DNA of 64,000 nt from Candidatus Falkowbacteria bacterium (GCA_043801965.1 JAZDLN010000022.1:9989-73988), one strand, 5' to 3'. Shown: positions 5,102 to 61,098, counted from the stretch's first letter. Translations and numbers: made by a program. The notes: generated by a model from the sequence alone, not told the origin.

Positions 5102-6175
5102 ATGAACCTAGACGATATTAAAATCTTTAAAAAACTGGACACCGGCCGGGTCAGCGAGGCGATGGAGGCCTTACCGGATCAGATGCGGCAGGTTTTAGAC
5201 GAGGCGCGGCTCATAAAAGTGCCCGCGGAATATAGTAAAGCAACCCAGGTAGTATTAAACGGCATGGGCGGATCCAATATCGGCGCGCATATCCTGCGTT
5301 CGGCCTTTGCCGACAAGATTAAGGTGCCGATCACGATCACTCCCGGATACAGCGTACCGGCCCACGTAAACGAGAATACTCTATATATCCTGTCCTCATA
5401 TTCCGGCACCACCGAGGAACCTTTAACCGTTTACCACGAAGTGAAAAAACGCCGCGCGAAAATCATGGCGATAAGCTCGGATGATCCGAAAAGCAAGCTA
5501 GTGAAACTGATGATGAAAGACGATATTCCTGGTTATATTTTTAAGCCGCAATTCAACCCGTCTCTCCAGCCGCGTCTCGGGCTCGGATATTCTATCTTCG
5601 GGATCGCCAGCATGATCGCCAAAGCCGGACTGTTTAAAATAAACGTGCGCGAGATCGAGGATATTATCGCTTCTTTGGAAATATGGACCCGGCGCCTGCG
5701 GCCGGAAGCGCCGACCCGGGTAAACGCCGCGAAACAGATCGCGCAAAAAATATTCGGGCGCGTACCGGTTTTGGTCGCGGCCGAACACCTAACCGGCAAT
5801 ACGCACGCGATGCGCAACCAGATAAACGAGTGCTCAAAATCGTTCGCTTCTTTTTTAGAGCTCCCCGATCTTAACCATTACACCATGGAAGGCCTCGTTA
5901 ATCCGGCCAGCAACCGGAAAAACCTGGCGTTCTTGTTTTTTGATTCCGCTTTTTATCATCCGCGGACCCAGAGGCGGAGCGGGCTAACCAAGCAGGTGGT
6001 TAAAAAAAATAAGGTCGCCGTTATATCTTATGAAATGAAGGGCGATAAGAAATTATTGCAGAATTTTGAACTTCTGCAGTTGGGGGCCTGGGTAAGCTAT
6101 TATCTAGGTATCGCCTATAAGGTTAATCCGGCTACCATCCCTTATGTAGACTGGTTCAAGAAGATGCTTAAATAG
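5102..6175 (+). CDS. SIS-domain sugar isomerase, bifunctional phosphoglucose/phosphomannose isomerase-like
   Basis: 357 aa. GMGGSNIG ... SYSGTTEE pattern typical of SIS/PGI-PMI proteins. Family call is from memory. Confidence 0.6.
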   Translation: MNLDDIKIFKKLDTGRVSEAMEALPDQMRQVLDEARLIKVPAEYSKATQVVLNGMGGSNIGAHILRSAFADKIKVPITITPGYSVPAHVNENTLYILSSYSGTTEEPLTVYHEVKKRRAKIMAISSDDPKSKLVKLMMKDDIPGYIFKPQFNPSLQPRLGLGYSIFGIASMIAKAGLFKINVREIEDIIASLEIWTRRLRPEAPTRVNAAKQIAQKIFGRVPVLVAAEHLTGNTHAMRNQINECSKSFASFLELPDLNHYTMEGLVNPASNRKNLAFLFFDSAFYHPRTQRRSGLTKQVVKKNKVAVISYEMKGDKKLLQNFELLQLGAWVSYYLGIAYKVNPATIPYVDWFKKMLK

Positions 6176-6202
6176 TGAATATAAATTTCTATAATAAAAA
6201 GA

Positions 6203-6236
6203 CGGACCGGGTTTTATAACCCGGTCCGGTTTTTTA
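6203..6236 (+). terminator. Intrinsic terminator
   Basis: cggaccggg-ttttata-acccggtccg hairpin plus T6. Confidence 0.75.
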
Positions 6237-6238
6237 AA

Positions 6239-6266
6239 TTGACTTTTTTATCAACCGTGCTAAAGT
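6239..6266 (+). promoter_or_regulatory. Sigma-70-like promoter candidate
   Basis: TTGACT (6239-6244), 16-nt spacer, TAAAGT (6261-6266). Confidence 0.4.
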
Positions 6267-6327
6267 AATAGCATTGAAAAAAACATAAAATATACTTTAT
6301 TTGCACATTTAAAAATGAGGCAGCGCG

Positions 6328-6783
6328 ATGGATTATGAACCGGCTAAAAAGAAAATAATCGCCCATTTAAAAAAATTCTCCGAAATTAATTATCCTGTTT
6401 TAAGAAAGGAGCTTAAAGTCGATCCGAGAACCCTTAAATTATATATTTTACGGATGATCAAGGAAGGGATTATTCTTTGTTTTATCGGCGGCCCGGTAAT
6501 GATCTGTAGATTAAATGAAGCCCATCCGCAAAGAATGGAGGAAGAAATGGATTACGAAATCGTAAAAAAACTGATCGTCGATGAATTGACAAAAAAACTT
6601 AAAACCAAAAGCAAATTTTATTTTAATGACCTGGCTAAGATACTTCAGGAAAATAACCCGAACATAAAAATGCGTGATGCGAAAAAAATCGTCAATAAGA
6701 TGGTGGCCGAAGGCATACTGGAATACTGGTCGAGCGGATCGACCACTATGTACGGCCTGGCCGGACAAGGCAAACAACAATAA
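6328..6783 (+). CDS. Tandem winged-helix protein; the C-terminal half is DsrD-like
   Basis: 151 aa. Two halves both start MDYE. The second half carries KSKFYFNDL...ILEYWSSGSTTMYGLAGQGKQ, which matches my memory of the DsrD signature. Confidence 0.6.
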   Translation: MDYEPAKKKIIAHLKKFSEINYPVLRKELKVDPRTLKLYILRMIKEGIILCFIGGPVMICRLNEAHPQRMEEEMDYEIVKKLIVDELTKKLKTKSKFYFNDLAKILQENNPNIKMRDAKKIVNKMVAEGILEYWSSGSTTMYGLAGQGKQQ

Positions 6784-6836: not shown

Positions 6837-6878
6837 GTAGAGACGCGATTAATCGCGTCTCTACATCGCGTCTTTACG
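6837..6878. repeat. GTAGAGACGC-family perfect palindrome plus an extra partial arm
   Basis: gtagagacgcgattaatcgcgtctctac (28 nt, perfect) followed by atcgcgtctttac, a third degenerate arm. Confidence 0.85.
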
Positions 6879-7930: not shown

Positions 7931-8009
7931 TCCGCCTATTAGCGGATCACTTAATTGCCCTCACCCGGTCCGCCGGTTGGCGGACCACCCTCTCCGATTC
8001 CGGAGAGGG
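7931..8009. repeat. Cluster of three GC-rich hairpins
   Basis: tccgc-ctatta-gcgga (7931-7946), ggtccgcc-ggtt-ggcggacc (7967-7986) and ccctctccg-attc-cggagaggg (7988-8009). None has a T-run. Confidence 0.7.
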
Positions 8010-12612: not shown

Positions 12613-12760
12613 GGCGTTTCCCCTGTTATTTAGTTTTTAATGAGCCTGTTTTGTTTCTTATATTAAGTTATACACATCTAAAAAAGTCTTTCTGTCATTC
12701 TAACGCATTATTAATATATCGGCAACGCGGCTGTCAAAGGGCCTAAAAACGCGCAAACGC

Positions 12761-12789
12761 GTAGAGACGCCCCGACGGGGCGTCTCTAC
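12761..12789. repeat. GTAGAGACGC-family palindrome
   Basis: gtagagacgccccg-a-cggggcgtctctac. Flanked by a 12-bp direct repeat ATTAATATATCG at 12710-12721 and 12796-12807. Confidence 0.85.
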
Positions 12790-12812
12790 GGTGGAATTAA
12801 TATATCGCTGAA

Positions 12813-15821: not shown

Positions 15822-15903
15822 GCGGACGTGGTGAAACTGGTAGACACGCTAGCCTTAGGAGCTAGTGGAGAAATCCGTGTGGGTTCAAGTCCCTCCGTCC
15901 GCA
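15822..15903 (+). tRNA. tRNA-Leu (anticodon TAG)
   Basis: Class II cloverleaf: acceptor gcggacg/cgtccgc, anticodon arm ctagc-ctTAGga-gctag, long variable arm, T loop ttcaagt. Confidence 0.9.
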
Positions 15904-15925
15904 CTATTTTTTAAGTTGTGGGCTT

Positions 15926-15998
15926 CCGCTCAGCCCCGAGAATTCGGGATGAGCGGATCCGCTCGCGAAGCCGAGCGGACAAGTCCCTCCGTCCGCAC
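15926..15998 (+). repeat. Two GC hairpins followed by a 19-nt duplicate of the tRNA-Leu(TAG) 3' end
   Basis: ccgctca...tgagcgg (15926-15956), tccgctcg-cgaagc-cgagcgga (15958-15979), then caagtccctccgtccgcac (15980-15998), identical to 15886-15904. Confidence 0.8.
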
Positions 15999-25622: not shown

Positions 25623-25671
25623 ATGCGTTATGCGTTATGCGTTATGCGTTATGCGTTATGCGTTATGCGTT
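25623..25671. repeat. Perfect heptanucleotide tandem repeat (ATGCGTT) x7
   Basis: Counted directly. Overlaps the last codons and stop of the ROK gene and extends into its 3' flank. Confidence 0.95.
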
Positions 25672-50391: not shown

Positions 50392-50793
50392 ATGAAAAAA
50401 ATATTATTCGTCTTAATTCCGATGATATTGGTTTTGTTGCCGGTTTTTTCTTTTGTCTTGACCGCCCACGCTCAATCCGAGGCTGACGTTATGCTTTGGG
50501 GCGGATTAGAGGGAGACGTCCAGGCCACTACCGGTTTAGGCAATACCGATCCGCGGGAAATGGCGGCCCGGGTGGTCAATATCATGTTGGGCTTTATCGG
50601 CATTATCGCCGTTATTATTATTTTATTGGGCGGATTCAAATGGATGACGGCCGCCGGCAACGAGGAGAAGGTGGATGAGGCTAAAAAACTCATCGGCTCC
50701 GGGGTGATCGGTTTGATAATATTATTGGCCGCTTTTGCGCTGGCCCAATTTATCCTGAACGCTCTTTACGGAGCTACCGGAGCTATCGGATAA
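50392..50793 (+). CDS. VirB2/TrbC-like pilin paralogue 1 (major-type)
   Basis: 133 aa. Signal peptide ...LTAHA/QS, GLGNTDPRE, GGFKWMTAAGNEEKVDEAKK between two TM helices. GGGGGTG SD. Confidence 0.8.
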   Translation: MKKILFVLIPMILVLLPVFSFVLTAHAQSEADVMLWGGLEGDVQATTGLGNTDPREMAARVVNIMLGFIGIIAVIIILLGGFKWMTAAGNEEKVDEAKKLIGSGVIGLIILLAAFALAQFILNALYGATGAIG

Positions 50794-50885
50794 TTTTAAA
50801 AGTGATATATATTTGACGAGGGAAAACCGGAAAAAAGCACCAGAAATCGGATATTTTTCCCAAGTCCATAGAAAGGGGGTGAAAT

Positions 50886-51287
50886 ATGAAAAAAATAATG
50901 TTCGTTTTAGCGATTTTTACTTTAACGGTATTACCGATCTTTTCTTTTTGTTTGACCGCTCACGCCCAGTCGGACGCCGACAATATGCTTTGGGGCAATT
51001 ATGAAACCAACGTCCAGGCAGCGACCGGATTAGGAAACACCGACCCCCGGCAGATGGCCGCTCAAGTCGTTAATATCATGTTGGGATTTTTGGGCATAAT
51101 AGCCGTAGTGATCATATTGTTGGGCGGATTCAAATGGATGACGGCCGCCGGAGACGAGGCGAAAGTTGATGAAGCCAAGAAATTGATCGGTGCCGGCGTT
51201 ATCGGCTTGGTCGTGATCTTAGCCGCGTTCGGAGTCGCCCAATTTGTTATCAACGCCTTATACGGAGCCACTGGCGCTACCGGTTAG
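50886..51287 (+). CDS. VirB2/TrbC-like pilin paralogue 2 (major-type)
   Basis: 133 aa, near-identical architecture to paralogue 1. GGGGGTG SD. Confidence 0.8.
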   Translation: MKKIMFVLAIFTLTVLPIFSFCLTAHAQSDADNMLWGNYETNVQAATGLGNTDPRQMAAQVVNIMLGFLGIIAVVIILLGGFKWMTAAGDEAKVDEAKKLIGAGVIGLVVILAAFGVAQFVINALYGATGATG

Positions 51288-51330
51288 TATTATATAATTA
51301 CCTGCTACAGCCTTTGATAAATCAGCGGAT

Positions 51331-51395
51331 GTCCGATTTAAAAAGCGGACTCCGCCGCCATAAACACGAAAGATGCATCGCGTTTATGGCGGCGG
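51331..51395 (+). promoter_or_regulatory. Conserved double RNA hairpin between pilin genes 2 and 3
   Basis: gtccg...cggac (51331-51350) and ccgccgccataaacacg-N10-cgcgtttatggcggcgg (51352-51395). No T-run. Confidence 0.55.
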
Positions 51396-51481
51396 AAACA
51401 AAAAGGAATTAGCGGTTTCTGTTTAAGGTTATAGTTAGCATTGATTTTATTTTTTATTATTCAATAGATTGGGGGTGAAAT

Positions 51482-51883
51482 ATGAAAAAAACTTTTTTCG
51501 TTTTAGCTTTATCCGTTTTGGTGATTTTGCCGGTTTTCGCTTTCGGTCTGACCGCTCACGCGCAAACAGCCGCCGACAACATGCTTTGGGGGGGCTTTGA
51601 GGGTAACGTACAGACCGCTACCGGTTTGGGTAATACCGACCCCAGAGAGATGGCTGGACAGGTGGTCAATATACTCTTAGGATTTTTAGGTATTATAGCG
51701 GTTGTGATCATACTTTTAGGCGGATTCAAGTGGATGACCGCGGCGGGAGACGAGGGCAAGGTTGATGAGGCCAAGAAGCTTATCGGCGCCGGTATTATCG
51801 GCCTGGTCGTTATTTTAGCGGCCTTCGCTATCGCCCAGTTCGTGATCAGCGCTTTGTACAACGCCACGAACGCCACCGGTTAA
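51482..51883 (+). CDS. VirB2/TrbC-like pilin paralogue 3 (major-type)
   Basis: 133 aa. C-terminus ALYNATNATG. GGGGGTG SD. Confidence 0.8.
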   Translation: MKKTFFVLALSVLVILPVFAFGLTAHAQTAADNMLWGGFEGNVQTATGLGNTDPREMAGQVVNILLGFLGIIAVVIILLGGFKWMTAAGDEGKVDEAKKLIGAGIIGLVVILAAFAIAQFVISALYNATNATG

Positions 51884-51909
51884 ATATTTATGTTATTCGA
51901 TCAGCGGGC

Positions 51910-51968
51910 GTCCGCTTTAAAGCGGACTCCGCCGCCATGAACACGATAATTCGCGTTTATGGCCGCAG
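51910..51968 (+). promoter_or_regulatory. Conserved double RNA hairpin between pilin genes 3 and 4
   Basis: Perfect palindrome gtccgctttaaagcggac (51910-51927) and ccgccgccatgaacacg...cgcgtttatggccgcag (51929-51968). Confidence 0.55.
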
Positions 51969-52031
51969 AAAGACCGTTAATCGGAGAGGTTAGTTTCTAA
52001 TTAATTGTTAATAAATAGATAGGGGGTGAAT

Positions 52032-52433
52032 ATGAAAAAAACATTTTTCGTTTTAGCGCTTTCAGCTCTGGTTATATTGCCGGTTTTCGCTTTCGGTCTG
52101 ACCGCTAACGCGCAATCAGCCGCCGACAACATGCTTTGGGGCGGTTTTGAATCTAACGTTCAGACGGCAACGGGTTTGGGGAATACCGACCCTAGGGAAA
52201 TGGCCGGTTCGGTAATTAATATATTTTTGGGATTCTTGGGTATCATTGCCGTATTATTGATCCTGTTCGGCGGTTTTAAATGGATGACGGCCGCCGGAGA
52301 CGAGGGCAAGGTTGACGAGGCTAAAAAGCTGATTGCCGCCGGTATTATCGGTTTGGTCGTTATTTTAGCGGCCTTCGCTATCGCCCAGTTCGTGATCAAC
52401 GCTTTGTACAACGCTACGAACGCCACGGGTTAA
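52032..52433 (+). CDS. VirB2/TrbC-like pilin paralogue 4 (major-type)
   Basis: ATG 52032 (MKKTFF) chosen by analogy with the paralogues and the GGGGGTG SD. Shares a 44-nt identical 3' stretch with paralogue 3. Confidence 0.8.
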   Translation: MKKTFFVLALSALVILPVFAFGLTANAQSAADNMLWGGFESNVQTATGLGNTDPREMAGSVINIFLGFLGIIAVLLILFGGFKWMTAAGDEGKVDEAKKLIAAGIIGLVVILAAFAIAQFVINALYNATNATG

Positions 52434-52475
52434 TCGTCTTTAGCAAAGATCTTTTACGTTTTTTTATACGTGGAT

Positions 52476-52545
52476 ACCCGGTTTTTCTAATCGGGTTCCA
52501 CTGTTATGGGCGTGAAGCAGATTCGCGTTCATGCCCGTAACAGTG
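52476..52545 (+). promoter_or_regulatory. Conserved double RNA hairpin between pilin genes 4 and 5
   Basis: acccg...cgggt (52476-52496) and cactgttatgggcgtgaa...ttcgcgttcatgcccgtaacagtg (52499-52545). The two imperfect positions are G-U wobbles only on the plus-strand RNA. Confidence 0.55.
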
Positions 52546-52566
52546 TTCTAATCATATAGATAATTT

Positions 52567-52953
52567 ATGTTTTCCGTTAAATCCCATTTTGTCGTATTTA
52601 TACTCTTAAGCCTGGTTTTCCTGGCGTTTATCCAGACGGTTTCCGCGGACGGAGGGAAAGAAGCCTTGGATGGCCTTAATATAACCGCCAAAGAAGGCTA
52701 CGGCACAGTACCGCGCGGTACGGTTTCGGCTACCATAGGCAAAATCGTCGGTTCGATACTTGCATTTACCGGTATTATCTTTTTTCTTTTAGTGATTTAC
52801 GGCGGTTTTACCTGGATGATGGCCAGGGGCAACGAGCAGGAAGTCGCAAAAGCGAAGAGTCTGATCGAACAGGCGGCCATTGGTCTTATTATAGTTTTAG
52901 CGGCTTACGCGCTTACCGCTTTTATAGGCCGGGCGCTAACCTCCCCGACCTAA
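52567..52953 (+). CDS. VirB2/TrbC-like pilin paralogue 5 (divergent)
   Basis: 128 aa. GGFTWMMARGNEQEVAKAK core. Unrelated mature N-terminus. No SD. Confidence 0.7.
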   Translation: MFSVKSHFVVFILLSLVFLAFIQTVSADGGKEALDGLNITAKEGYGTVPRGTVSATIGKIVGSILAFTGIIFFLLVIYGGFTWMMARGNEQEVAKAKSLIEQAAIGLIIVLAAYALTAFIGRALTSPT

Positions 52954-52987
52954 AAACGATCCGGATTTTGTCCGGCGGCAGTTTATT

Positions 52988-53392
52988 ATGAAATACGGCC
53001 AAATATTTTTTACAATATTTTTTTTCTTGTGGCTGCTGTCAGCGATTCCGGCGGTTAACGATTGTTCGGCGTATAGTTTTATGGATGAGAGCGGCATCAA
53101 GGAAACCGGACAGGCTACCGGCCATGCTTCCATAAGTCTGACCCAAAGATCCCCGGCACAGATGGTCGGAATGATAATCAAGGTTCTCTTGTCCTTTCTT
53201 GGGGTCGTTTTCCTTATAATAATGATCTACGCCGGTTATTCCTGGATGATAGCCCGGGGCAACGAGCAGGTCGCGGAAAAAGCTAAGGGCACGATCGTTA
53301 ACGCCACGATCGGCCTTATAATAATAATGCTCGCCTATGCCATAACCGTTTTTATCGGCGGGCAATTAGCCGGAAGCACCGCGGTCGGTTAG
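52988..53392 (+). CDS. VirB2/TrbC-like pilin paralogue 6 (divergent)
   Basis: 134 aa. AGYSWMIARGNEQVAEKAK core. No SD. Confidence 0.7.
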   Translation: MKYGQIFFTIFFFLWLLSAIPAVNDCSAYSFMDESGIKETGQATGHASISLTQRSPAQMVGMIIKVLLSFLGVVFLIIMIYAGYSWMIARGNEQVAEKAKGTIVNATIGLIIIMLAYAITVFIGGQLAGSTAVG

Positions 53393-53437
53393 TGATTTTT
53401 TAAAAAACCGGATATATAAAAAGCGAACGAATCACGT

Positions 53438-53845
53438 ATGATTAATCTTTTGAATATCAATAAGTTCATGATTACCGCGGTAATTTTGCTGGCGGTTTTT
53501 ATAGTTCCGTCCGCCGAAGCCGCAAATTTAGGCGATGCGTTTAAGCAACCCTTAAACGACGTGGCCGGATCAACGGGCGCCGGCTACAGAAGCGACGCGG
53601 ATCCGGCCGTACTTATAGGAAAGGTGGTCCAAGCCGCCTTATCTTTCGTGGGCGTAGTATTCCTAATATTGATGATCTATGCCGGATATACGTGGATGCT
53701 CGCCCGGGGCAACGAGCAGCAGGTGGATAAAGCCAAGAATCTGATCACGGCCGCTGTTATCGGCTTGATCATTGTCCTGGCCGCATACGCCATAAGTTAT
53801 TTCGTGTTAAGCCAGATCGGCGCGGAAACCATGCAGGAGGTTTGA
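53438..53845 (+). CDS. VirB2/TrbC-like pilin paralogue 7 (divergent)
   Basis: 135 aa. AGYTWMLARGNEQQVDKAK core. No SD. Confidence 0.7.
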   Translation: MINLLNINKFMITAVILLAVFIVPSAEAANLGDAFKQPLNDVAGSTGAGYRSDADPAVLIGKVVQAALSFVGVVFLILMIYAGYTWMLARGNEQQVDKAKNLITAAVIGLIIVLAAYAISYFVLSQIGAETMQEV

Positions 53846-53873
53846 TGTCCGAATAATATTTATACTTTGATCT

Positions 53874-54275
53874 ATGATGAATAAAATAAAAAAATATCGT
53901 CATTTGTTTTTTCTTTTTTTCTTATTGGCGGTATTGATCGTCCCCTATTTTGTTTTCGCCGCTACGCCGTTGGATAATCTTGAAAAAGTAGGAACCGAAG
54001 GCGCCGGTTACGCCCCCTATGAGGATGGAGAATATAATAATACCTTCATAACCGTGGTGGGCGTTATAATTAAGGCCTTTTTGGGCTTATTGGGCGTAAT
54101 ATTCATCGTATTGATCTTGTACGGCGGTTATAACTGGATGACCGCCGCCGGCGAAGAACAAAAAGTAACGAAAGCGAAAGACACTATCAGCCGGGCCCTT
54201 ATCGGCCTTTTGATAGTAGTCGGTTCATTCGCCATCTGGCAATTCATTTCCAACGCTATCATTTTAGAAATATGA
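53874..54275 (+). CDS. VirB2/TrbC-like pilin paralogue 8 (divergent)
   Basis: 133 aa. GGYNWMTAAGEEQKVTKAK core. No SD. Confidence 0.7.
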   Translation: MMNKIKKYRHLFFLFFLLAVLIVPYFVFAATPLDNLEKVGTEGAGYAPYEDGEYNNTFITVVGVIIKAFLGLLGVIFIVLILYGGYNWMTAAGEEQKVTKAKDTISRALIGLLIVVGSFAIWQFISNAIILEI

Positions 54276-54682
54276 TAATTAAGACCATAAAAAAAATATT
54301 CAGGTATGGATTAGGCGCCCTTTTCCTAATCCCCTTTTTCGGAGCTAGGGCCGCGCTGCTTACAGGAGATACCGCGGACAGGATAATAGGTGCCGGCGAT
54401 AGTCTGGGTACGGCGGCCGGTTTCGCTTCCGGCCAGAACCCGGGGAGCATTGTGGCCACGATAATTACAGGTTTTTTAAGCCTACTAGGCATTATATTTA
54501 TCGTGCTTATAATATACGGCGGCTATAGCTGGATGACGGCCGCCGGTGAGGAGCAAAAAGTAGAAAAAGCCAAAGACACGATCAAGCGCGCCGTAATAGG
54601 CCTGATCATAATAGTGGCCGCTTATTCGATCACTTACTTTGTTTTTACCGCCCTGGACGCCGCGATGAGCGGAAATCCCTAG
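54272..54682 (+). CDS. VirB2/TrbC-like pilin paralogue 9 (divergent)
   Basis: 136 aa. GGYSWMTAAGEEQKVEKAK core. 4-nt ATGA overlap with paralogue 8. Confidence 0.7.
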   Translation: MIIKTIKKIFRYGLGALFLIPFFGARAALLTGDTADRIIGAGDSLGTAAGFASGQNPGSIVATIITGFLSLLGIIFIVLIIYGGYSWMTAAGEEQKVEKAKDTIKRAVIGLIIIVAAYSITYFVFTALDAAMSGNP

Positions 54683-55391: not shown

Positions 55392-55535
55392 AAAACAAAG
55401 CGATTTCTTTAACATAAGCTTATTTATCCCCGGATGGGGATTTTTGTTTACTTGTGTTATTCGATATTTTTTGATATATTACATTTATATTGATATAAAA
55501 AACCCACAAACAACTAAGGCTAGTATTGTCGAATC

Positions 55536-55701
55536 GGCCTGGTAGCCAAGCGGTAAGGCAATCCCGACGCTTCGGGACAAAACTGCCGCATATATAAGCT
55601 GATTTTAAGCACAATCATGGCCTGGTAGCCAAGCGGTAAGGCAATCCCGACGCTTCGGGACAAAACTGCCGCATATATAAGCTGATTTTAAGCACAATCA
55701 T
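55536..55701 (+). repeat. Two perfect 83-bp tandem units, each holding a tRNA-Cys 5' fragment, a 16-nt palindrome and an AT-rich spacer
   Basis: Units 55536-55618 and 55619-55701 are identical. Each has 26 nt matching the tRNA-Cys 5' end, TCCCGACGCTTCGGGA replacing cagtttg, then caaaactg matching the tRNA, then 33 nt of unrelated sequence. Confidence 0.95.
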
Positions 55702-55773
55702 GGCCTGGTAGCCAAGCGGTAAGGCAACAGTTTGCAAAACTGTCATGCACCGGTTCAAATCCGGTCCAGGCCT
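55702..55773 (+). tRNA. tRNA-Cys (anticodon GCA)
   Basis: Acceptor ggcctgg/ccaggcc, anticodon arm acagt-ttGCAaa-actgt, T arm accgg-ttcaaat-ccggt. 72 nt. Confidence 0.9.
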
Positions 55774-55784
55774 CAAATTAAATT

Positions 55785-55806
55785 CCACCTCTTAGGGTGG
55801 TTTTTG
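55785..55806 (+). terminator. Intrinsic terminator after tRNA-Cys
   Basis: ccacc-tcttag-ggtgg hairpin plus T5. Confidence 0.7.
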
Positions 55807-56001
55807 TTTTAAGTAATTTGAGCTGGTACTCGAATATGTCGGGTATGCAAAATAAAAAAGGGCAGTATAAGGGTATGTATAATGAACCCTTAAGACTAAA
55901 GATGATTTACTGTAGAGTCCAAGTATACATAGACAAACAGTAAACAGTCATAGGTTATGATTTTATGGTAAGTCTATAGATATTTGGACTAAAAAAAGGA
56001 G

Positions 56002-56033
56002 TTATCCACATGATTTTCCACAACTGTGCATAA
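56002..56033. promoter_or_regulatory. Cluster of three DnaA-box-like 9-mers
   Basis: TTATCCACA (56002-56010, perfect consensus), TTTTCCACA (56014-56022) and the reverse TTATGCACA (56025-56033). Flanked by TAAGTCTA-N7-TTGGACT units at 55969-55991 and 56044-56068. Confidence 0.45.
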
Positions 56034-56697
56034 ATATCTTTCTTTAAGTCTAAATGCTTTTGGACTTAAATGTGGATTGTCAATAACGATGTGTATGCCT
56101 CTAATATTTTATCTAATAATAAATGATAAATATTCTAAGACCTAGGATTGACTGAAGCTGTTTTGTGTGTTATATTAATAATAGGTTAATAAACAAAAAA
56201 GTTATTTACAATTTAAGAAAAATTTACCTAAATATCTGCTTTAAAAGTACGGGCGGATAAAATTGGTTAAATTTTCCTGTTTTCTACTTATCATTTCGGC
56301 CAGATCCGACATGGTCAGACAAAAACAAAAACAAAAAAAAGGTAGTGCTGATTATAATATTATAAATAATCGGTATTTACCGCTTGATTGGTAGAAAACA
56401 TGCTTTTAAGTCGGAAAAAAGCTCCAAAAACTCCGTGATCAGGGATTTTCTTGCTCATATCTCGTATATGGACAATTAATAAGATCCGGGGCTTGTGGCT
56501 CAACATTAGTGACCTCATCTATTTACATAAGAAGGGGGCCCAGTTGGGCCACTTTTTAATTTGTATTTATACTTCAGATGATAAATTTTACGGATAGCAT
56601 ACATTTATCGAAAGCTTGCCAAAATTGTCGCGGCATTATATAATAATAATAGATTTTCCTGTGAATAAGGAATTTTTTTAACAGCTAATAATTGTTT

Positions 56698-60412: not shown

Positions 60413-60420
60413 CCCGTATG

Positions 60421-60499
60421 TGGACGCGCAATCCCGAAGCGTCGGGAGAACCTAGGACCCCCTCGGTGTAAATCCCGAAGCGTCGGGACTCTAACCAGC
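60421..60499 (-). pseudogene. Partial tRNA-Val copy (3' ~60 nt) with two 16-nt palindromes substituted
   Basis: Sense strand: gctggttagag[TCCCGACGCTTCGGGA]tttacaccgagggggtcctaggttc[TCCCGACGCTTCGGGA]ttgcgcgtcca. The palindromes replace cacctcg and gaatcc of the intact tRNA. Confidence 0.85.
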
Positions 60500-60751
60500 C
60501 GCTTTTGATCCGCACAATTTTTTATAAAATTTTTTGCTTTTCTGATTTTTTAAAAATTTTTCCTGAATCATGGCCTCTGACCTGGTGTCATATTTTTCTT
60601 GATAAACAAGATGCCATCCGCCGTTATATTTAGAAGTATAAACAGAAAGCCGGTTTTGGTGTTCAAAAATTCTTCTTCTTAAATTATCGGTTTGTCCAAT
60701 ATAAAATTTATCGTATTTTTTGTTGTACAAAATATAAACAAAAAATTTCAT
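60491..60751 (-). CDS. Small GIY-YIG nuclease-family protein (YhbQ/UPF0213-like)
   Basis: 86 aa. FVYILYN...KFYIGQTDNLRRRIFEH ... E (GIY-YIG, Arg, Glu pattern). The ATG lies 2 nt after the tRNA-Val 3' end. The last codons and stop lie inside the tRNA-Val remnant. Confidence 0.85.
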   Translation of the reverse strand: MKFFVYILYNKKYDKFYIGQTDNLRRRIFEHQNRLSVYTSKYNGGWHLVYQEKYDTRSEAMIQEKFLKNQKSKKFYKKLCGSKAAG

Positions 60752-60752
60752 G

Positions 60753-60826
60753 TGGACGCGCAAGGATTCGAACCTAGGACCCCCTCGGTGTAAACGAGGT
60801 GCTCTAACCAGCTGAGCTACGCGTCC
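60753..60826 (-). tRNA. tRNA-Val (anticodon TAC)
   Basis: Sense strand: ggacgcg ta gctc agctggtta gagc a cctcg ttTACac cgagg gggtc ctagg ttcgaat ccttg cgcgtcc a. One U-U mismatch in the T stem. Confidence 0.9.
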
Positions 60827-60859: not shown

Positions 60860-60946
<87 letters not shown>

Positions 60947-60992: not shown

Positions 60993-61098
60993 GGACTTGC
61001 CCCGTCATCCGACGGGGTCCGCCTCGGGCGGAAACCTTCACGAGGTTGCCCCATCCCGCCCTCCGGCGGGACGTGTTCAATTATTCCACCACGTCCGC
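60993..61098 (-). pseudogene. Degenerate tRNA-Leu(GAG) copy with GC hairpins replacing the anticodon arm and inserted in the T arm
   Basis: Sense strand: gcggacgtggtggaa..gaacacg [tcccgcc-ggag-ggcggga] tggggcaacctcgtgaaggtt [tccgcc-cga-ggcgga][ccccgtc-ggat-gacgggg] caagtcc. The 3' acceptor strand is missing. Confidence 0.75.

Follow-up and report, generated by a model that had tools for sequence, protein, structure and literature searches.

Palindrome-interrupted tRNA-Cys copies in a Candidatus Falkowbacteria genome: candidate modules of a tRNA-gene-colonising GIY-YIG element

Introduction

Fragments of tRNA genes in prokaryotic genomes are usually ascribed to integrases or to CRISPR spacers (PMC9897764), and free-standing GIY-YIG nuclease genes located among tRNA genes are known from T-even phages, where they are represented by segB (PMC2330249). 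Here we describe an array of tRNA-Cys fragments in a stretch of 64,000 nt from Candidatus Falkowbacteria bacterium (GCA_043801965.1 JAZDLN010000022.1:9989-73988), hereafter the window, in which positions are counted from the first nucleotide. The array is made of two palindrome-interrupted units that adjoin the intact tRNA-Cys gene, and the same palindrome interrupts a tRNA-Val copy beside the gene of a minimal GIY-YIG nuclease. Comparison with other genomes revealed a recurrent architecture: tandem tRNA copies, of which one is intact and the others are interrupted by a palindrome, with a minimal GIY-YIG gene close to the palindrome. The tRNA-Cys units are probably modules, devoid of an open reading frame (ORF), of a family of selfish elements that colonise tRNA genes and are built around this nuclease.

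SegB resembles the system described here in being encoded by a free-standing GIY-YIG gene among tRNA genes. In phage T6, a unit of tRNA plus segB undergoes SegB-dependent tandem amplification via short homology between the 3' end of the nuclease gene and the 5' end of the tRNA (PMC13096335), which is a precedent for the present case, where the 3' end of the ORF is tRNA D-arm sequence. In contrast, SegB is a two-domain protein of ~220 amino acids (aa) that recognises tRNA gene DNA, whereas the nuclease here is a bare catalytic domain; the hosts here are bacterial chromosomes, and a conserved palindrome in extra tRNA copies is unreported for SegB loci. Free-standing homing endonucleases share with the present system a sporadic presence at a conserved locus, but they carry a DNA-binding domain with a long asymmetric site. 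The GIY-YIG type II restriction enzymes Eco29kI/Cfr42I (CCGCGG) and Hpy188I (TCNGA) act as oligomers on a short dyad-symmetric site (PMC2241918, PMC3045582, PMC1952068). Unlike GIY-YIG restriction-modification systems, the loci inspected here have no adjacent methyltransferase, and their sites are few, local and within tRNA copies rather than genome-wide.

Two further systems share single features with the array. Repetitive extragenic palindromes (REPs) and their associated tyrosine transposases (RAYTs), together known as REPtrons, likewise combine a single small nuclease-type gene with flanking short GC-rich palindromes that are also found gene-free elsewhere; RAYTs, however, belong to the HUH/Y1 class, and REPs are GTAG-headed sequences of ordinary intergenic DNA, whereas here the enzyme is of the GIY-YIG type and the palindromes have a TCC head and lie inside tRNA copies. 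Integrase att-site fragments are also partial tRNA copies near an intact tRNA gene (PMC9897764), but the fragments here are 5' or 3' pieces, tens of nucleotides away, tandem, palindrome-interrupted and integrase-free. Standalone Slx1-like/UPF0213 proteins have the same minimal architecture as the present nuclease; a survey of the superfamily in 2006 described them as the minimal GIY-YIG form with unknown role and reported no association with tRNA genes or palindromes (PMC1564403). A full-text literature search, which included the palindrome sequence as a query and whose coverage excluded most subscription journals, revealed no earlier account in which palindrome-substituted tRNA copies are tied to minimal GIY-YIG genes. 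The element family is widespread and apparently undescribed.

Anatomy of the tRNA-Cys array

Sequence reading, Tandem Repeats Finder (TRF) and a repeat search agreed with the initial annotation that two abutting units of 83 nt, 100% identical to each other, adjoin the intact tRNA-Cys gene. TRF reported the interval 55536-55727 with period 83, 2.3 copies, 100% matches and a score of 384. The intact gene was called by ARAGORN as tRNA-Cys(GCA) at 55702-55773/4 and matched the Rfam tRNA family with 68.2 bits. The features of the array are as follows.

55536-55618, plus strand: unit 1, made of tRNA-Cys nt 1-26 (55536-55561), the palindrome (55562-55577), CAAAACTG (55578-55585) and a spacer (55586-55618)
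55619-55701, plus strand: unit 2, identical to unit 1, with the palindrome at 55645-55660
55702-55774, plus strand: intact tRNA-Cys(GCA)

The anatomy of the units was also as first read: nt 1-26 of the tRNA (100% identical) are followed by TCCCGACGCTTCGGGA in place of CAGTTTG, by the eight tRNA nucleotides CAAAACTG, which are nt 34-41 of tRNA-Cys in alignment numbering, and by a spacer of 33 nt. The tRNA-Cys cloverleaf has the anticodon stem ACAGT/ACTGT and the loop TTGCAAA, and by this cloverleaf CAGTTTG comprises four 5' anticodon-stem bases together with the first three loop bases, U32, U33 and G34. The 7-nt replacement had therefore been recognised correctly, and only its assignment to the 5' strand of the anticodon stem alone needs correction. 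The spacer showed no significant similarity to the native upstream flank or to any other part of the window outside the units.

Both units are devoid of a T arm and of the 3' acceptor strand. They were missed by ARAGORN and Rfam even at a permissive threshold (E<=1), in line with the earlier statement that the fragments cannot fold as tRNA; over the whole window, Rfam at gathering and permissive thresholds found five tRNAs only. Because the two units are identical, the doubling at this locus looks recent.

Two functional assignments of the array were considered and rejected. The palindromes have no T-run on their 3' side, as terminators would, and a guide-RNA or CRISPR array, in which constant repeats alternate with unique spacers, is not indicated since the copying extends to the entire unit, its 'spacer' being identical or nearly so from unit to unit.

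The 16-mer and other tRNA companions in the window

A search for further copies of the palindrome, as suggested in the initial annotation, revealed exact matches at 60473-60488 and 60432-60447 on the minus strand, both in a tRNA-Val fragment that lies ~4.8 kb from the Cys array and just 3' of a GIY-YIG gene. Allowing up to three mismatches, 10 matches were found in the window against 0.57 expected by chance. Every exact copy sits within tRNA-derived sequence, and its orientation relative to the tRNA is the same in both Cys units and at the two sites of the tRNA-Val fragment. The features of this region are listed below in their minus-strand order.

60752-60826, minus strand: intact tRNA-Val(TAC), whose 3' end overlaps the start of the GIY-YIG ORF
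60491-60763, minus strand: GIY-YIG nuclease ORF (PF01541), 90 aa from TTG at 60763 or 86 aa from ATG at 60751 (NCBI annotation)
60420-60499, minus strand: partial tRNA-Val copy, made of nt 15-25 (60499-60489), the 16-mer (60488-60473), nt 33-57 (60472-60448), the 16-mer again (60447-60432) and nt 64-75 (60431-60420)

In the fragment the 16-mer replaces CACCTCG (5' strand of the anticodon stem) and GAATCC (T loop and stem), and the blocks of 11, 25 and 12 nt around these inserts are identical to the intact gene. The stop codon of the nuclease ORF is the TAG of the D-loop motif GGTTAGAG in this fragment. At its other end, the ATG of the nuclease overlaps the 3' end of tRNA-Val (60748-60765, minus strand; GTCCACATGAAA). 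If the two are co-transcribed, 3' processing of the tRNA would free a leaderless or near-leaderless mRNA; in Bacteroidota relatives the nuclease ORF comes after the tRNA terminator instead.

Partial copies with inserted hairpins were also found at two tRNA-Leu genes.

60860-60946, minus strand: intact tRNA-Leu(GAG)
60993-61098, minus strand: partial tRNA-Leu(GAG) copy upstream of the gene, with the 3' acceptor strand lost
15822-15904, plus strand: intact tRNA-Leu(TAG)
15918-15998, plus strand: partial 3' copy of tRNA-Leu(TAG) downstream of the gene, ending with nt 65-83 (15980-15998)

In the tRNA-Leu(GAG) copy, TCCCGCCGGAGGGCGGGA (61071-61054) stands for the whole anticodon stem-loop, and two hairpins (61032-61018 and 61017-61000) occupy the T loop between GGTT and CAAGTCC. 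The tRNA-Leu(TAG) copy carries TCC...GGA hairpins (15925-15957 and 15958-15979) at the same T-loop insertion site. The hairpins of both copies are GC-rich and perfect. Overall, four of the five tRNA genes in the window have a partial companion bearing a hairpin or palindrome. Only one GIY-YIG gene is present in the window, and neither tblastn nor a six-frame hidden Markov model search detected a decayed remnant near tRNA-Cys or elsewhere in it.

Other palindromes occur in the window. Upstream of tRNA-Glu (7931-8009) there are three adjacent hairpins, TCCGCCTATTAGCGGA, TCCGCCGGTTGGCGGA and CCCTCTCCGATTCCGGAGAGGG; two are of the TCC...GGA type, but no origin from tRNA-Glu is recognisable in the flanks. 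At 6837-6864 (GTAGAGACGCGAttaaTCGCGTCTCTAC) and 12760-12790 (CGTAGAGACGCCCCgacGGGGCGTCTCTACG) there are long perfect palindromes headed by GTAG...CTAC; these are REP-like and distinct from the TCC...GGA class.

The minimal GIY-YIG nuclease

The nuclease matches the GIY-YIG domain PF01541 over residues 7-78 (E=1.5e-13). With 86-90 aa it consists of the catalytic domain alone, and a separate DNA-binding domain is absent. Residues Y6, Y17, I18, G19, R27, H31 and E64 are invariant across 17 relatives; among these, Y6, Y17, R27, H31 and E64 are of the catalytic type, and we take them to correspond to the catalytic residues of I-TevI. The family is large, comprising 27,175 clusters at 50% identity, mostly of 80-125 aa. 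The sole match in the PDB was the UPF0213 protein EF2693 (1ywl). No relative was found in the viral collection searched, and PADLOC and PHROGs gave marginal partial matches only, with no clear tie to known defence or phage families. No methyltransferase ORF lies next to the nuclease gene, either in the window or in the relatives' loci that were inspected.

Comparative analysis of nuclease loci

GTDB species genomes were scanned with an alignment of the six closest proteins, which yielded 54 loci, 53 of them distinct (designated by L numbers). They span Patescibacteria, Saccharibacteria, many Bacteroidota, Ignavibacteriae/Chlorobiota, Aminicenantia, Nitrospiria and Calditrichaceae. The Bacteroidota loci include isolates of Eudoraea, Aquimarina, Algoriphagus and Maribellus; L018 is from the isolate Eudoraea adriatica DSM 19308 and L051 from the complete chromosome of Algoriphagus halophilus (CP146486). 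Across these loci the nuclease proteins are 40-65% identical.

The nearest homologues have an intact tRNA-Val, the ORF and then a tRNA-Val copy with TCCCGA-N4-TCGGGA in place of the same seven bases, and a layout like that in the window was observed in the relatives L001, L002, L003 and L005. The locus L003 carries the exact 16-mer of the window, and its upstream module (tRNA-Val nt 1-25, the 16-mer, tRNA nt 33-46, a spacer of 33 nt, then the intact gene) has the layout of the Cys units. In L005, a Chlorobi contig, tRNA-Asn is followed by two tandem units, each with the ORF, a 3' tRNA-Asn fragment with TCC...GGA palindromes and a terminator copy.

The tRNA types found at the surveyed loci are Val, Asp, Asn, Ala, Ile, Thr, Tyr, Gly and Leu, to which the window adds Cys. 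A flank of more than 300 nt on both sides was available for 35 of the 53 loci; in 28 of these a tRNA on the same strand lies no more than 150 nt from the ORF, and 27 have chained partial tRNA copies with an insert. Two layouts were recognised: intact tRNA, ORF and 3' fragment (layout A), and 5' fragment, ORF and intact tRNA (layout B). Both sometimes occur at the same tRNA in related genomes, and among related Patescibacteria the ORF may be on either side of tRNA-Val (L001/L006/L008 versus L011/L014).

Analysis of the inserts revealed at least one perfect palindrome of the type TCC/CCC...GGA/GGG in 48 of the 53 loci, and 201 palindrome matches in total (nested matches counted) against 4.65 in shuffled sequences. 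The palindromes are dyad-symmetric, 14-18 bp long and of the form TCC...GGA, with the consensus TCCCGAGT|ACTCGGGA; 39 of 46 single inserts begin with TCC and end with GGA. Symmetry is unbroken through the centre in at least eight distinct variants, and the exact 16-mer TCCCGAGTACTCGGGA was found in Patescibacteria, Bacteroidota, Aminicenantia and Saccharibacteria. The next palindrome follows the stop codon at a distance of 1-46 nt in 39 of 48 cases; in the other layout, a palindrome precedes the start codon by 5-37 nt (19 of 46 cases). Inserts replace 3-17 nt of the D loop, of either strand of the anticodon stem, of the whole anticodon arm or of the T loop, and the junction is often the same for a tRNA type in distant genomes, for example q25/q33 for Val and q38/q51 for Asp.

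The 16-mer and the architecture seen at tRNA-Cys are thus not absent from other tRNA loci and genomes; both recur there. Palindrome-bearing copies can also be mis-annotated as tRNA genes: in L056 (1054-1139), an 86-nt 'tRNA-Asp' called by ARAGORN is a full-length copy with CCCCGAGGGCTCGGGG in the T loop.

ORF-less tandem arrays in other genomes

Arrays of units devoid of an ORF were found at several loci besides the one in the window.

Window, tRNA-Cys: 2 units of 83 nt
L010, tRNA-Val: 3 units of 81 nt
L026, tRNA-Asp: 3 units of 139 nt
L051 (complete genome), tRNA-Asp: 5 units of 151 nt, two palindromes per unit
L053, tRNA-Asn: ~3 units of ~104 nt
L070, tRNA-Cys: 4 units of ~110 nt

In L010, L026, L051 and L053 the ORF-less arrays stand upstream of the intact tRNA, and in L010 the array and the intact tRNA-Val are followed by tandem ORF-plus-fragment units. 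The locus L070 came from scans of metagenomes with DNA patterns, in which a strict pattern (GCGGTAAGGCAATCCCGA...) gave no match and a looser one gave 27 loci, mostly unrelated palindromes; the informative loci were L070 and L073. The tRNA-Cys of L070 has a quite different sequence, and the junction is shared: GGCAA is followed by TCCCGAGGACTCGGGA and then by CAAAAC, with 7 nt replaced. The L070 contig has no nuclease gene. The farther its units lie from the intact gene, the more they have diverged, and in the distal one the palindrome is no longer perfect. It follows that ORF-less arrays last over evolutionary time, and new units seem to form beside the intact gene. The copy number, which had been expected to vary, indeed differs among arrays (2, 3, 3, 5 and 4 units across genomes); together with the one decay gradient, this supports the expectation indirectly.

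Palindromes of the type TCCCGA...TCGGGA also occur on the metagenome contig L081 (~6141-6453), beside a minus-strand cluster of tRNA-Arg, Arg, Pro and Ser; a GIY-YIG gene is absent within ~800 nt of them.

The tRNA-Cys locus in related genomes

The locus was compared via orthologues of the 3D-domain gene upstream of the array (best identity 64%). Synteny is conserved and comprises paralogues of a type IV secretion system (T4SS) pilin, the 3D gene, tRNA-Cys, ~1 kb of non-coding DNA, a dksA-like gene, lspA and tsaE. At this syntenic position the presence of fragments is sporadic: tRNA-Cys is plain and fragment-free in L087/L088 (a 1.27-Mb contig), has units upstream in the window, and in L089 and L090/L091 is accompanied downstream by a 3' fragment (from the T loop to the 3' end) with a GGGGCTT(TC)GCCCC hairpin in front of it. 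In L090 a duplicated terminator follows this fragment. Different fragment types at one tRNA gene among related lineages are as expected for recurrent element activity.

Two terminator-like hairpins bound the tRNA-Cys transcription unit in the window.

55426-55441, plus strand: terminator-like hairpin of the upstream 3D-domain gene, the upstream bound of the tRNA-Cys transcription unit
55785-55800, plus strand: terminator-like hairpin 3' of tRNA-Cys

The promoter-like motif TTTGATATATTA lies directly 5' of tRNA-Cys in L090 and upstream of unit 1 in the window. Because this shared motif precedes unit 1, the units are probably transcribed within the leader of the pre-tRNA; such a location is a consequence of position and not evidence of a leader function.

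The neighbourhood of the locus has features of its own. On the plus strand, 50392-54682 holds ten tandem paralogous genes of ~130-136 aa of the T4SS pilin family (PF18895), and the same run precedes the 3D-domain gene in L087, L089 and L090. Between tRNA-Cys and the dksA-like gene, ~900 nt of AT-rich DNA (55800-56690) contain no convincing ORF and no Rfam match above noise; the plain relative L087 has a comparable gap. Immediately past the terminator, ~45 nt (AATTTGAGCTGGTACTCGAAT...) can be aligned with the lead-in to the hairpin-bearing 3' tRNA-Cys fragment of L089/L090, and the region may represent a decayed downstream tRNA-Cys fragment. Further away, at 25623-25671, the heptamer ATGCGTT occurs in seven perfect tandem copies (TRF score 98).

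A proposed selfish element at tRNA genes

The initial annotation left it open whether the fragments form a structured leader of the tRNA precursor or are scars of a mobile or repair process. Our analysis favours the mobile-element branch, because the same 16-mer occurs in a tRNA-Val fragment beside a GIY-YIG gene and the architecture recurs across phyla, and it places the array in a specific family.

In the element we propose, a colonised locus holds a single tRNA gene in several copies, complete or partial, set in a short tandem row. One of them is intact, presumably kept so by selection, while in the others the palindrome takes the place of 3-17 nt in the D, anticodon or T arm, which abolishes tRNA function. 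The nuclease ORF lies between copies, a few to ~45 nt from a palindrome. The palindrome would be the cis-site of the family, bound and probably cut by a nuclease dimer in the manner of the GIY-YIG restriction enzymes, which cut short palindromes as oligomers (PMC2241918, PMC3045582). It is regarded as the cis-site because no other feature is conserved throughout the more than 10 tRNA species and several phyla, among which protein identity is only 40-65%, and its symmetry through the centre suggests a double-stranded DNA site for a dimer rather than a selected RNA hairpin. An 86-aa catalytic domain could not plausibly read many different tRNA sequences alone. By analogy, the restriction enzymes are the closest model for such a domain using a palindrome of 16 bp.

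Breaks at or near the palindrome would fall within tRNA homology and might be repaired from another tRNA copy, whether on the sister chromosome, in a neighbouring unit or in a homologous gene on incoming DNA. In-register repair would spread the ORF linked to the palindrome, and out-of-register repair would expand or contract arrays; units would be duplicated by unequal or nuclease-stimulated recombination. The Cys array itself would be a relic that has lost its ORF, or else a satellite on which the tRNA-Val-linked nuclease acts in trans.

Several observations weigh against this model. The Cys locus and the L070 contig contain no nuclease ORF or remnant, so that the array's link to the nuclease is drawn from the shared palindrome and the family pattern. 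A classical homing site is destroyed by insertion. Occupied, ORF-bearing loci here retain both the intact tRNA and the palindrome, and a nuclease that cuts the palindrome would go on cutting the locus that encodes it. At L053, L051 and L005 several palindrome variants accompany one ORF, which fits a rule of structure plus TCC/GGA better than a strict sequence site. The model does not account for the first entry of the palindrome into a new tRNA type, and neither target duplication nor junction microhomology was seen. Exceptions to the pattern also exist: the hairpins of L089/L090 are GGGGC...GCCCC and not TCC...GGA, 5 of the 53 loci are palindrome-free and L039 retains two intact copies.

Two other origins of the palindrome, a transposon model with the palindrome as abutted terminal inverted repeats and a fold-back or P-nucleotide origin, are unsupported: target duplications are absent, the palindrome arms are not flank-derived, and half-sites on either side of the ORF are lacking.

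Alternative explanations

A conversion drive, which we consider possible but unlikely, would combine the same two components differently. Pairing of a palindrome-bearing tRNA copy with a palindrome-free one would extrude the palindrome as a hairpin with TCC/GGA at its base, an Slx1-like structure-specific nuclease would cut the partner, and repair would copy in the palindrome and the ORF. The flanking tRNA homology, not the protein, would choose the target, which would explain how one conserved 86-aa enzyme serves more than 10 tRNA species. Redundant copies would be progressively crippled and the selected one would survive, so that the element carrying the survivor becomes indispensable, a 'cleave-and-rescue' logic. 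Arrays such as that at tRNA-Cys would then be a fossil record or a working set of targeting arms.

Equally tentative is an immunity scar, in which the nuclease targets intact tRNA arms and the palindrome-replaced copies, including the Cys units, are resistant alleles left after cleavage and repair. It accords with the restriction of the palindromes to parts of the D, anticodon or T arm of non-functional copies, with a diverged full-length tRNA-Val copy in L002 that carries two palindromes beside a different intact tRNA-Val, and with the cleavage that phage SegB makes within tRNA genes (PMC2330249). However, recognition of more than 10 tRNA species at differing positions would be demanded of a catalytic domain of 86 aa that lacks a DNA-binding domain, an intact and presumably cleavable tRNA always remains by the gene, and a mere scar is not expected to be conserved as TCCCGAGTACTCGGGA across phyla among proteins so divergent.

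A role at the RNA level appears doubtful, and somewhat less probable than either of these. The units in the pre-tRNA-Cys leader would then provide hairpins for processing, stability, regulation or protein binding, and the association with the nuclease would be secondary. The position of the units between the promoter-like motif shared with L090 and the tRNA, in one terminator-bounded unit, is compatible with this, as are the apparent copies of the native upstream region in the array units of Bacteroidota. The array RNA also folds more stably than shuffled sequences (z = -4.4); as the minimum free energy structure merely pairs the two palindromes with each other, this fold is not informative. 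Symmetry through the centre and the many zero-loop perfect palindromes are unexpected for a selected RNA hairpin. Moreover, fragments may be 5' or 3' pieces and may lie upstream or downstream, in no constant arrangement relative to the mature tRNA, the units have no Rfam match and the syntenic relative L087 does without any fragment.

An assembly artefact or neutral slippage unrelated to any element is very unlikely. The source is a metagenome-assembled genome and the units are 100% identical, but even a single fragment-plus-palindrome unit needs explanation and fits the family pattern, and homologous arrays are found in isolate and complete genomes and at an independent tRNA-Cys locus with diverged units. 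As the architecture is also present in the isolate genome L018 and the complete chromosome L051, an artefact is unlikely as a general explanation and could at most affect the Cys copy number in the window.

An integrase remnant, that is, an att-site duplication from a prophage or island in tRNA-Cys that was later tandemly duplicated, can practically be set aside: it is the usual explanation of prokaryotic tRNA gene fragments (PMC9897764), but in such cases it is the 3' part of the tRNA that is duplicated, on the borders of an integrase-bearing insert of foreign DNA kilobases long, whereas here the 5' part lies 33 nt from the gene, no integrase is nearby (the neighbours are the 3D-domain gene, the dksA-like gene, lspA and tsaE) and the palindrome is common to the Cys units and the GIY-YIG locus.

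Conclusions

Selfish nuclease genes at tRNA loci are known, and there is a modest chance that the targeting principle itself is new. Cultivable hosts of the family include Eudoraea adriatica DSM 19308, Algoriphagus halophilus, Aquimarina and Maribellus. If the proposed reading, a selfish element built around the minimal nuclease, is true, it raises the question of how a catalytic domain lacking a DNA-binding module achieves locus specificity. It would also explain confusing tRNA pseudogenes and tandem repeats that tRNA and repeat finders report out of context, and it would assign a function to the 'minimal' GIY-YIG proteins, which have been listed with no role ever since the survey of 2006. 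Thousands of small genes annotated as 'GIY-YIG nuclease family protein' in Bacteroidota, Patescibacteria and other phyla would then form a coherent class of selfish elements with a defined cis-site and a defined target, the tRNA genes.

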